From: Escherichia coli
GTDB lineage: Bacteria; Pseudomonadota; Gammaproteobacteria; Enterobacterales; Enterobacteriaceae
Strand: one strand, 5' to 3'
Length of the DNA stretch: 64,000 bases
Assembly: GCF_003018255.1 (NCBI RefSeq)
Contig: NZ_CP027440.1
Part shown: in pieces, positions 8,804-45,697 of the stretch
Numbering within the stretch: position 1 is the first letter of the stretch
Layout of the letters: every line of letters begins with the position of its first letter
The notes under the pieces: generated by a model
The model's input: the letters and a program-made list of their open reading frames with translations, nothing else
Told to the model about the DNA's origin: nothing
Databases searched by the model: none
Position numbers and translations under genes: made by a program

Positions 8804-10090
8804 ATGAAACTCTACAATCTGAAAGATCACAATGAGCAGGTCAGCTTTGCGCAAGCCGTAACCCAGGGGTTGGGCAAAAATCAGGGGCTGTTTTTCCCGC
8901 ACGACCTGCCGGAATTCAGCCTGACTGAAATTGATGAGATGCTGAAGCTGGATTTTGTCACCCGCAGTGCGAAGATCCTCTCGGCGTTTATTGGTGATGA
9001 AATCCCGCAGGAAATCCTGGAAGAGCGCGTACGCGCGGCGTTTGTCTTCCCGGCTCCGGTCGCCAATGTTGAAAGCGATGTCGGTTGTCTGGAATTGTTC
9101 CACGGGCCAACGCTGGCATTTAAAGATTTCGGCGGTCGCTTTATGGCACAAATGCTGACCCATATTGCGGGCGATAAGCCAGTGACCATTCTGACCGCGA
9201 CCTCCGGTGATACCGGAGCGGCAGTGGCTCATGCTTTCTACGGTTTGCCGAATGTGAAAGTGGTTATCCTCTATCCACGAGGCAAAATCAGTCCACTGCA
9301 AGAAAAACTGTTCTGTACATTGGGCGGCAATATTGAAACTGTTGCCATCGACGGCGATTTCGATGCCTGTCAGGCGCTGGTGAAGCAGGCGTTTGATGAT
9401 GAAGAACTGAAAGTGGCGCTGGGGCTAAACTCAGCTAACTCGATTAACATCAGCCGTTTGCTGGCGCAGATTTGCTACTACTTTGAAGCTGTTGCGCAGC
9501 TGCCGCAGGAGGCGCGCAACCAGCTGGTTGTCTCGGTGCCAAGCGGAAACTTCGGCGATTTGACGGCGGGTCTGCTGGCGAAGTCACTCGGTCTGCCGGT
9601 GAAACGTTTTATTGCTGCGACCAACGTGAACGATACCGTGCCACGTTTCCTGCACGACGGTCAGTGGTCACCCAAAGCGACTCAGGCGACGTTATCCAAC
9701 GCGATGGACGTGAGTCAGCCGAACAACTGGCCGCGTGTGGAAGAGTTGTTCCGCCGCAAAATCTGGCAACTGAAAGAGCTGGGTTATGCAGCCGTGGATG
9801 ATGAAACCACGCAACAGACAATGCGTGAGTTAAAAGAACTGGGCTACACTTCGGAGCCGCACGCTGCCGTAGCGTATCGTGCACTGCGTGACCAGTTGCA
9901 TCCAGGCGAATATGGCTTGTTCCTCGGCACCGCGCATCCGGCGAAATTTAAAGAGAGCGTGGAAGCGATTCTCGGTGAAACGTTGGATCTGCCAAAAGAG
10001 CTGGCAGAACGTGCCGATTTACCCTTGCTTTCACATAATCTGCCCGCCGATTTTGCTGCGTTGCGTAAATTGATGATGAATCATCAGTAA
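8804..10090 (+). CDS. thrC: Threonine synthase
   Basis: 428-aa ORF MKLYNLKDHNEQVSFAQAVTQGL...; immediately follows thrB. Confidence 0.98.
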   Translation: MKLYNLKDHNEQVSFAQAVTQGLGKNQGLFFPHDLPEFSLTEIDEMLKLDFVTRSAKILSAFIGDEIPQEILEERVRAAFVFPAPVANVESDVGCLELFHGPTLAFKDFGGRFMAQMLTHIAGDKPVTILTATSGDTGAAVAHAFYGLPNVKVVILYPRGKISPLQEKLFCTLGGNIETVAIDGDFDACQALVKQAFDDEELKVALGLNSANSINISRLLAQICYYFEAVAQLPQEARNQLVVSVPSGNFGDLTAGLLAKSLGLPVKRFIAATNVNDTVPRFLHDGQWSPKATQATLSNAMDVSQPNNWPRVEELFRRKIWQLKELGYAAVDDETTQQTMRELKELGYTSEPHAAVAYRALRDQLHPGEYGLFLGTAHPAKFKESVEAILGETLDLPKELAERADLPLLSHNLPADFAALRKLMMNHQ

Positions 10091-36789: not shown

Positions 36790-37185
36790 ATGTGTGAAGG
36801 ATATGTTGAAAAACCACTCTACTTGTTAATCGCCGAATGGATGATGGCTGAAAATCGGTGGGTGATAGCAAGAGAGATCTCTATTCATTTCGATATTGAA
36901 CACAGCAAGGCGGTTAATACCCTGACTTATATTCTGTCGGAAGTCACAGAAATAAGCTGCGAAGTTAAGATGATCCCTAATAAGCTGGAAGGGCGGGGAT
37001 GCCAGTGTCAGCGACTGGTTAAAGTGGTCGATATCGATGAGCAAATTTACGCGCGCCTGCGCAATAACAGTCGGGAAAAATTAGTCGGCGTAAGAAAGAC
37101 GCCACGTATTCCTGCCGTTCCGCTCACGGAACTTAACCGCGAGCAGAAGTGGCAGATGATGTTGTCAAAGAGTATGCGTCGTTAA
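36790..37185 (+). CDS. caiF: Transcriptional activator CaiF of the cai/fix operons
   Basis: 131-aa product MCEGYVEKPLYLLIAEWMMAENRWVIAREISIHFDIEHSKAVNTLTYILSEV... Confidence 0.95.
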   Translation: MCEGYVEKPLYLLIAEWMMAENRWVIAREISIHFDIEHSKAVNTLTYILSEVTEISCEVKMIPNKLEGRGCQCQRLVKVVDIDEQIYARLRNNSREKLVGVRKTPRIPAVPLTELNREQKWQMMLSKSMRR

Positions 37186-42938: not shown

Positions 42939-44456
<1,518 letters not shown>

Positions 44457-44705
44457 TTAATTCCACTGTGAAAACGAATATTTATTTTGCGTTCCCGTTT
44501 GTTTTATTTTTGTTAACATTTAATATAATTATTATTAACCTCGTGGACGCGTTAATGGCTAACTCATAATGGGTATTCAATAAGCTGCATTCTGTGATTG
44601 TTATCACATTTTTGTTTCGGGTGAATAGAGGGCATTTTTTTCGTTAATTTTGATTATTAATCAGTTTGTTATGCTCTGTTGTGAGTAAAAAAATAGCATC
44701 TGACT

Positions 44706-44836
44706 TTCAATATTGGTGATCCATAAAACAATATTGAAAATTTCTTTTTTCTACGCCATGTTTTCAATATTGGTGAGGAGCTTAACAATATTGAAAGTTG
44801 GATTTATCTGCGTGTGACATTTTCAATATTGGTGAT
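44706..44836. promoter_or_regulatory. cai/fix divergent control region: two complete CaiF-type sites plus a third half-site
   Basis: TTTCAATATTG-N13-CAATATTGAAA occurs twice (44706-44739 and 44763-44796); a third TTTCAATATTGGTGA copy lies at 44821-44835. Matches the reported CaiF site architecture (11-bp inverted half-sites, 13-bp spacer). Confidence 0.75.
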
Positions 44837-44926
44837 TAAAGTTTTATTTCCAAATTAAAGGGCGTGATATCTGTAATTAACACCACCGATATGAACGACG
44901 TTTCCTTCATGATTTCTGGAGATGCA

Positions 44927-45697
44927 ATGAAGATTATTACTTGCTATAAGTGCGTGCCTGATGAACAGGATATTGCGGTCAATAATGCTGATGGTTCATT
45001 AGACTTCAGCAAAGCCGATGCCAAAATAAGCCAATACGATCTCAACGCTATTGAAGCGGCTTGCCAGCTAAAGCAACAGGCAGCAGAGGCGCAGGTGACG
45101 GCCTTAAGTGTGGGCGGTAAAGCCCTGACCAACGCCAAAGGGCGTAAAGATGTGCTATCGCGCGGTCCGGATGAACTGATTGTGGTGATTGATGACCAGT
45201 TCGAGCAGGCACTGCCGCAACAAACGGCGAGCGTACTTGCTGCAGCCGCTCAGAAAGCAGGCTTTGATTTGATCCTCTGTGGCGATGGTTCTTCCGACCT
45301 TTATGCCCAGCAGGTTGGTTTGCTGGTAGGCGAAATCCTTAATATTCCGGCAGTTAACGGCGTCAGCAAAATTATCTCCCTGACTGCAGATACCCTCACC
45401 GTTGAGCGCGAACTGGAAGATGAAACAGAAACCTTAAGCATTCCGCTGCCTGCGGTTGTTGCTGTTTCCACTGATATCAACTCCCCACAAATTCCTTCGA
45501 TGAAAGCCATTCTCGGCGCGGCGAAAAAGCCAGTCCAGGTATGGTCGGCGGCGGATATCGGTTTTAACGCAGAGGCAGCCTGGTCAGAACAACAGGTTGC
45601 TGCGCCGAAACAGCGCGAGCGTCAGCGCATCGTGATTGAAGGCGACGGCGAAGAACAGATCGCCGCATTTGCTGAAAATCTTCGCAAAGTCATTTAA
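44927..45697 (+). CDS. fixA: Electron transfer flavoprotein beta-subunit homolog FixA
   Basis: 256-aa product [27 protein letters not shown]...; the upstream in-frame extension (44864) is not conserved. Confidence 0.95.

Follow-up and report, generated by a model that had tools for sequence, protein, structure and literature searches.

CaiF and the caiT-fixA interval

The divergent region between caiT and fixA in Escherichia coli raises the question of why the left half of the CaiF operator, which occurs there twice as part of a complete site, is present a third time without a partner, and what this third copy (hereafter copy 3) contributes to regulation. In enterobacteria, CaiF alone regulates anaerobic carnitine metabolism specifically; this pathway bears on the production of gamma-butyrobetaine and TMA in the gut, and the accepted model of CaiF action rests on two upstream sites. 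It is also the sensor of current L-carnitine biosensors, which are built on the fix promoter (PMC12083890; PMC8085414), and its effector is crotonobetainyl-CoA (PMC12083890). According to two papers that quote Buchet 1999 (PMC12083890; PMC3680233), the published CaiF sites F1 and F2 have the form TTTCAATATTG-N13-CAATATTGAAA, and purified CaiF footprints these two sites only. Among the accessible papers up to 2025, F1 and F2 alone are listed and CaiF binding at copy 3 is not reported; judged from its sequence, copy 3 is a partnerless CaiF-type half-site, probably embedded in the fix promoter, that appears not to have been annotated.

The window analysed here, a stretch of 64,000 nucleotides of E. 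coli DNA, includes caiF itself (Table 1), the product of which scores 28.5 bits against the Pfam family PF07180 CaiF_GrlA (cut-off 25) and aligns to GrlA (PDB 4KT5_C) over the HTH region (E = 0.001).

Three copies of the repeat and two complete sites

The 15-mer TTTCAATATTGGTGA is present in the window in three exact copies, all on the plus strand (44705-44719, 44762-44776, and 44821-44835), with start-to-start spacings of 57 and 59 bp, and a repeat search recovered the same three-copy family. When up to two mismatches were allowed there were six occurrences in the window against 0.12 expected, a number that none of 100 shuffles reached. The three exact copies sit within the 473-bp divergent caiT-fixA interval, and copies 1 and 2 are followed, after a 13-bp spacer, by CAATATTGAAA (44729-39 and 44786-96), forming complete sites. 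The original prediction had placed three copies at approximately 57-bp spacing in this region, with two of them forming complete sites of the CaiF architecture and the third, nearest to fixA, lacking a partner; its coordinates and spacing are borne out by the exact search, as are the two complete sites, the missing partner and the proximity to fixA.

Copy 3 retains the left 11-bp half TTTCAATATTG exactly (44821-31) together with the GTGA tail, and resembles F1 and F2 in its identity at 15/15 positions, its orientation, its regulatory region and its 57-59 bp period. Its conserved core is TTCAATATTGGTGA (44822-35), and it has an internal 8-bp palindrome, CAATATTG. It differs from F1 and F2 in lacking a right half, in its apparent location in the core promoter, F2 and F1 being centred upstream at about -70 and -127, and in being more strictly conserved than the full sites. 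At the canonical 13-bp offset the right half CAATATTGAAA shows 5/10 mismatches in the window, and the best match anywhere between +14 and +45 has 3/10 mismatches. The half-sites of the interval follow one another in alternating steps of 24 bp and 33-35 bp, a pattern that ends in copy 3, which is 59 bp from the nearest left half and 35 bp from the nearest right half. The GTGA tail of TTTCAATATTGGTGA also constitutes the left half of the CRP-like motifs nested in F1 and F2; at copy 3 only the GGTGA half of this nested pattern (GGTGA-N6-TnACA) is present and a scan allowing up to three mismatches gave no hit, the sequence in the second position being TTTTA, which agrees with TCACA at 2/5 positions.

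Other assignments for the sequence around copy 3 were considered and discarded. A degenerate right half in the downstream block GTTTTATTT, at 10-bp spacing, matches in its TATT core only, and a sigma-54 promoter (TGGCAC-N5-TTGC) read through TGGTGA-N5-GTTTT has the TGG, but 12 nt downstream TT instead of GC. By direct reading, neither an IHF nor an FNR consensus fits at copy 3. Elsewhere in the window, an isolated exact TTCAATATTG at 9328 and a palindrome with one mismatch within caiF (36889-36900) look like chance occurrences. At the downstream border of the interval, the mechanically called fixA open reading frame takes as its start a GTG that precedes the annotated ATG by 63 nt (44864-45697; 277 versus 256 aa), and the longer 277-aa form of FixA is used by some database entries (P0002, 277 aa).

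Table 1. Features of the caiT-fixA regulatory region and associated genes, in window coordinates.
Feature	Position	Strand	Basis or remark
caiF, 131-aa regulator	36790..37185	+	ORF; Pfam PF07180 CaiF_GrlA
caiT, first gene of caiTABCDE	42939..44453	-	
Perfect CRP site TGTGAttgttaTCACA	44593..44608		Centre 44600.5; motif scan
CaiF site F1, distal full site	44705..44739	+	Centre ~-127 of fix; match in repeat and architecture
CRP-like GGTGAtccataAAACA, nested in F1 spacer	44715..44730	+	Centre 44722.5; motif scan
CaiF site F2, TTTCAATATTG-N13-CAATATTGAAA, promoter-proximal full site	44762..44796	+	Centre ~-70 of fix
CRP-like GGTGAggagctTAACA, nested in F2 spacer	44772..44787	+	Centre 44779.5; 2/10 mismatches
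Putative fix -35 hexamer GTGACA	44814..44819	+	Consensus scan; kept only in Escherichia/Salmonella/Citrobacter-type lineages
Copy 3, partnerless CaiF-type left half with GTGA tail (A-box)	44821..44835	+	Exact match
Putative fix -10 hexamer TAAAGT	44837..44842	+	Consensus scan; fits inferred start at 44849; not kept in distant genera
Second conserved block GTTTTATTT	44841..44849	+	6 bp after the A-box; overlaps inferred fix start at 44849
fixA, first gene of fixABCX	44927..45697	+	

Promoter context of copy 3

A consensus scan of the interval returned a single sigma-70-like promoter on the plus strand, GTGACA-17-TAAAGT, and copy 3 lies wholly within its 17-bp spacer. The transcription starts of the two operons can be placed relative to the CRP sites of the region. 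In Buchet 1998, the cai and fix starts reportedly lie 289 bp apart, with CRP site 1 at position -41.5 relative to cai and the other two, sites 2 and 3, at -69.5 and -126.5 of fix, respectively. Scanning with the pattern TGTGA-N6-TCACA identified the motif GGTGAggagctTAACA within the F2 spacer, which we take to be the published CRP site 2, the motif GGTGAtccataAAACA within the F1 spacer, presumably site 3, and the perfect match TGTGAttgttaTCACA, which is assumed to represent site 1 and would lie at -41.5 of the cai promoter if cai transcription begins at 44559 on the minus strand. From the motif centres and the reported offsets, fix transcription would begin at 44849 and cai transcription at 44559; these positions are separated by 289 bp, and the reported numbers are thus consistent with the sequence. 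E. coli K-12 carries two 1-bp deletions upstream of F1 and the figure of 289 is therefore good to approximately 2 bp, with the arithmetic on the fix side being unaffected. Copy 3 would thus be situated at about -28 to -14 of fix, given a start derived in this manner from reported coordinates.

The hexamers of the E. coli promoter are not conserved outside Escherichia/Salmonella/Citrobacter-type lineages, whereas the 14-mer TTCAATATTGGTGA is. In other genera the block GTTTTATTT, which has 1.73 bits per column among 13 genus-level representatives, may supply the -10 element (TATTTT or TAATTT); the promoter would then have shifted in the Escherichia/Salmonella/Citrobacter-type lineages, and the 14-mer would cover the -35 element and the spacer in the other genera. 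With either assignment of the -10 element the 14-mer would be inside the core promoter. Two further motifs were observed in this region. A CRP-like sequence, TGTGAcattttCAATA (44813-44828; 3/10 mismatches, centre -28.5 of fix), shares positions with both the lone half-site and the -35 hexamer; it is restricted to Escherichia/Salmonella/Citrobacter-type lineages. In the fix leader, a TGnTA motif (44865-44869, approximately +17 to +21) is kept in 13/13 genus representatives and resembles an extended -10 element, but without the T at -7.

Conservation across genera

When 100,044 species genomes were scanned with the pattern TTCAATATTG-N13-CAATATTGAA, 65 loci were detected, 46 of which are caiT-fixA regions, belonging to Escherichia, Salmonella, Citrobacter, Proteus, Yokenella, Atlantibacter, Trabulsiella, Pluralibacter, Phytobacter, Pseudocitrobacter, Intestinirhabdus, Entomohabitans and other Enterobacteriaceae. 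Since an exact full site was what brought these loci into the sample, six loci were added that had been found through their FixA or CaiF proteins, namely those of S. enterica, S. bongori, Cedecea davisae, Providencia rettgeri, P. alcalifaciens and a record labelled Aeromonas veronii. All six of these protein-found loci have the lone 14-mer without a mismatch, while their full sites carry 1-4 mismatches.

Across the 53 cai-fix loci, which represent approximately 20 genera, TTCAATATTGGTGA is exact at the lone position in 47; of the two halves of the proximal full site, the left is exact in 42 and the right in 31. The distance between the lone half-site and the proximal full site is 59 bp in 46/53 loci, and in 51/53 the half-site precedes the fixA ATG by 102-107 bp, its position being about -106 in nearly all of the 46 loci from the scan. 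A right-half partner was found in 0/53 loci, the canonical offset showing 4-6/10 mismatches and the interval from +14 to +45 at least three mismatches throughout. Among the 13 genus-level representatives, the lone 14-mer has 1.89 bits per column and the two F2 halves 1.94 and 1.96, against 0.64-0.89 for the flanks. No other copy of the 14-mer or A-box, which might have marked a further CaiF target, exists in approximately 730 kb of locus sequence and the window, and its orientation is always that of the fixA strand.

The number of full sites upstream of the half-site varies from one to three, while the terminal half-site is constant. A single full site is present in Pluralibacter, Atlantibacter, Yokenella, Trabulsiella, RIT691 and strain 89, in which the intergenic length ranges from 324 to about 600 bp; two are present in Escherichia, Salmonella, Citrobacter and Phytobacter; and Proteus has three at a 59-bp period, which are still followed by the lone half-site (e.g., locus L061, 6340-6490, and locus L005). 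A proximal full site of the F2 type occurs in all genera examined and F1 in some lineages only. In Entomohabitans the lone element has been lost. The two distal left halves in Proteus read TTGTTGA in place of TTGGTGA.

Retention of the 14-mer while the promoter hexamers drift is the reverse of what a purely polymerase-driven constraint would produce. Since the motif is constant between lineages, co-variation cannot separate recognition by CaiF from another constraint.

Variation within E. coli

The 34-nt core around copy 3 (44812-45) is identical in 5314/5389 complete E. coli genomes, and a 64-nt segment enclosing it (44797-860) in 4871/5390. For a control 64-mer located upstream of F1, on its cai-promoter side (44610-44673), identity is limited to 3/4738 genomes, and 652 genomes in which the region is present have no match to it at all. 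Within E. coli, 1-bp indels are also tolerated in the gap that separates the cai promoter from the array. The wider segment 44582-44678, between the cai promoter with CRP site 1 and F1, is hypervariable within the species, an example being strain 2015C-4136CT1, which has dozens of differences there and almost none from F1 to fixA. In E. coli SFE8 (locus L069, 1749-2509), IS26 replaces the region from just upstream of F1 and fixA is not in its usual place, so that the CaiF sites and the fix promoter are absent there. Of 5403 matches to the cai-fix intergenic region among E. coli genomes, three come from records that carry a plasmid label.

A proposed role in activation of fix

Copy 3 is very probably a working part of the known cai-fix switch. 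We favour, with a probability of about 55%, the reading that it is a recognition element for CaiF which lacks a partner, is kept functional by selection, and lies in the fixABCX core promoter, where it serves to activate fix directly. One to three full CaiF-type sites, each enclosing a CRP-like motif, form an array that ends in the lone half-site, and in the model proposed a CaiF protomer would occupy that half-site, probably only with the help of the CaiF/CRP complex at F2, RNA polymerase, or the effector crotonobetainyl-CoA, which would have been absent from the 1999 footprints. From approximately -28 to -14, CaiF could then activate fix by touching polymerase or by reshaping the spacer. A right half would land on the -10/start region, which would explain its universal absence, and a lone site without a cooperative partner would need a perfect match, so that it would be expected to be the best-kept element. 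We infer occupancy of copy 3 by CaiF, the positive effect and the contact mechanism alike. Of the roles that the original prediction had offered for the third copy, that of an auxiliary site is supported by the very strong conservation of the 14-mer across genera (exact in 47/53). The alternative of a helical-phasing element is neither needed nor specifically supported. The fixed 59-bp spacing between F2 and copy 3 also holds F2 and its nested CRP-like motif at a constant distance from the promoter, and the gap between cai promoter and array accommodates single-base indels.

A 50-bp region overlapping the fix mRNA start is reportedly required for expression of cai. If this result holds, copy 3 may also anchor a higher-order complex that serves cai, and the two roles are not exclusive. 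In a stronger form of this idea, copy 3 would be the end of a wrapped or looped CaiF-CRP array, the main role of which is to activate the distant cai promoter and co-regulate both operons. This possibility, which overlaps the direct-activation reading and does not exclude it, has perhaps one chance in several of being the main function. It would account for the regular alternation of half-site steps that ends at copy 3, for the identical orientation of every A-box, for the lack of a CaiF motif near the cai promoter, and for the dependence of cai transcription on the fix start region that Buchet 1998 reportedly found. However, the hypervariability of the segment between the cai promoter and F1, with its 1-bp indels in E. 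coli, argues against strict phasing towards cai, and the genera with one full site differ widely in intergenic length.

It is unlikely, although the position of the 14-mer within the core promoter would be compatible with it, that the sequence is conserved for a reason unrelated to CaiF, polymerase or another factor requiring the 14-mer and its identity with a CaiF half-site being historical. Such a constraint could act on TTCAAT as a -35-like element together with the spacer, since distant genera have TTCAAT 17 bp upstream of the possible -10 element TATTTT/TAATTT, or on GGTGA, which is the CRP-like half in F1 and F2. TTCAAT agrees with TTGACA, however, at only 3/6 positions; the second CRP half is absent, as described above, and a CRP dimer centred near -9.5 would block the promoter. 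Furthermore, spacers normally vary, yet all 14 positions are fixed here and are identical to the proven left half of a CaiF site, whereas the E. coli hexamers themselves are not conserved.

[quoted passage not shown] Copy 3 might accordingly be read as a negative operator, at which a CaiF protomer (perhaps effector-free) or another repressor silences or caps fix, acting as a governor or autoregulatory brake, and a perfect lone site in the spacer would be compatible with such occlusion, as would the overlap of copy 3 with the clade-specific CRP-like sequence TGTGAcattttCAATA. This is less probable still, in that CaiF is described solely as an activator of both operons, copy 3 is co-conserved with an activating full site at a fixed 59 bp, and a repression phenotype is unreported in the accessible papers.

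The suggestion that the third copy is a decoy, or the functionless left half of a decayed third site or of a tandem duplication, draws on the third complete site of the Proteus array, which indicates that site number changes in evolution, and on the similarity of units 1 and 2 beyond their motifs (repeat family D2, 79% over 29 nt), but is very improbable, as neither a decoy nor a relic would be kept without change in one fixed place through approximately 20 genera with diverging flanks, Proteus has the lone half-site in addition to three full sites, the half-site is exact in 47/53 loci with the supposedly decaying partner traceless in all of them, and the E. coli core is nearly invariant (5314/5389). 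Derivation of unit 3 by tandem duplication was likewise rejected, only 7-8 of its 33 non-motif positions being shared with units 1 and 2, which is background; the identity is therefore attributable to selection on the motif rather than to residue of a duplication.

Comparison with other promoter-embedded activator sites

GrlA, the regulator of LEE1 P1 in EHEC and EPEC, belongs to the same Pfam family as CaiF (PF07180), and its structure (PDB 4KT5) is the one to which CaiF aligns. In PMC4730234, citing Islam 2011, GrlA is proposed to activate LEE1 P1 from within the -35/-10 spacer. The LEE1 P1 promoter is located upstream of ler and reads TTGACA-18-TACACA. Copy 3 resembles the GrlA target in being without a long dyad and may do so in its location between the -35 and -10 hexamers, the fix promoter and start being assigned by a consensus scan and reported coordinates, and action of CaiF at copy 3 may, by analogy, be of the same kind. 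The fix spacer is 17 bp in contrast to the 18 bp of LEE1 P1; GrlA-type activation involves a non-optimal 18-bp spacer, the shortening of which makes the activator dispensable. Unlike GrlA at LEE1 P1, CaiF also uses upstream full sites and CRP. When the CaiF motif was compared with the spacer of LEE1 P1, no resemblance beyond AT-richness emerged.

Activators of the MerR family (MerR, CueR and SoxR) have their cis element between the -35 and -10 hexamers, where copy 3 would also lie, and CaiF, like them, could sit on the face of the DNA opposite polymerase. CaiF is nevertheless a PF07180 protein and not a member of the MerR family, and the fix promoter has a 17-bp rather than a 19-20-bp spacer, with a lone half-site carrying the 8-bp palindrome rather than a full dyad operator. 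The spacer of 17 bp is optimal, so that models built on an overlong spacer, as for MerR and GrlA, are not applicable to fix.

A third comparison is provided by AraC at araBAD, where the promoter-proximal half-site I2 overlaps the -35 element and is occupied only in the presence of inducer. Copy 3, too, is a single half-site at or within the core promoter and might be occupied only in the presence of an effector, and the CaiF region as a whole may be similar to the AraC I1-I2 system, with upstream sites holding the regulator and CRP co-activating. Copy 3 differs from I2 in that the protein families are unrelated and in its distance of 59 bp from the nearest left half, I2 being adjacent to its neighbour.

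A more speculative proposal, which we regard as rather unlikely, is that one mode of action is common to the family of CaiF and GrlA, in which a single asymmetric site in the core promoter would be decisive and would be switched by an effector (crotonobetainyl-CoA for CaiF), the F sites with their nested CRP motifs serving to load or hold the regulator. By analogy, this would amount, with the same reservation, to an AraC-I2-like 'light switch' in an unrelated family of small winged-helix proteins. Effector-switched occupancy would explain why the footprints of apo-CaiF are limited to F1 and F2, and a decisive site in the core promoter would explain the need for the fix-start region even for cai expression.

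If CaiF does touch the transcription machinery at the half-site, the mechanism of activation changes from the accepted one, in a way that is testable by a few point mutations; in copy 3, CAGTACTG can be substituted for CAATATTG with the hexamers and the 17-bp spacer kept. CaiF would also be tied mechanistically to the virulence regulator GrlA, and a rational handle on the basal level and dynamic range of the biosensors would be gained. If copy 3 reflects mere promoter constraint, it becomes a minor annotation.

Occurrences of the scanned pattern outside cai-fix regions

The remaining 19/65 loci of the scan are non-cai, unrelated matches that were set aside, with no CaiF homologue adjoining. 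They comprise an ftsK-like coding sequence in Ignatzschineria, a repeated element in Thiofilum, 21-bp tandem arrays in Paludibacter and other Bacteroidetes, and scattered single occurrences. The palindrome TTCAATATTGAA occurs in arrays or pairs at 21-bp spacing in Paludibacter and in unrelated, partly GC-rich genomes (locus L059, 6043-6340; locus L031, 2462-2680; and loci L014, L021 and L040), with no link to cai, fix or CaiF. A contig assigned to Tsukamurella asaccharolytica (locus L032; 628 bp, coverage 1.0) is almost identical to the ftsK-like region of Ignatzschineria (loci L016 and L053, reverse strand) and looks like assembly contamination.
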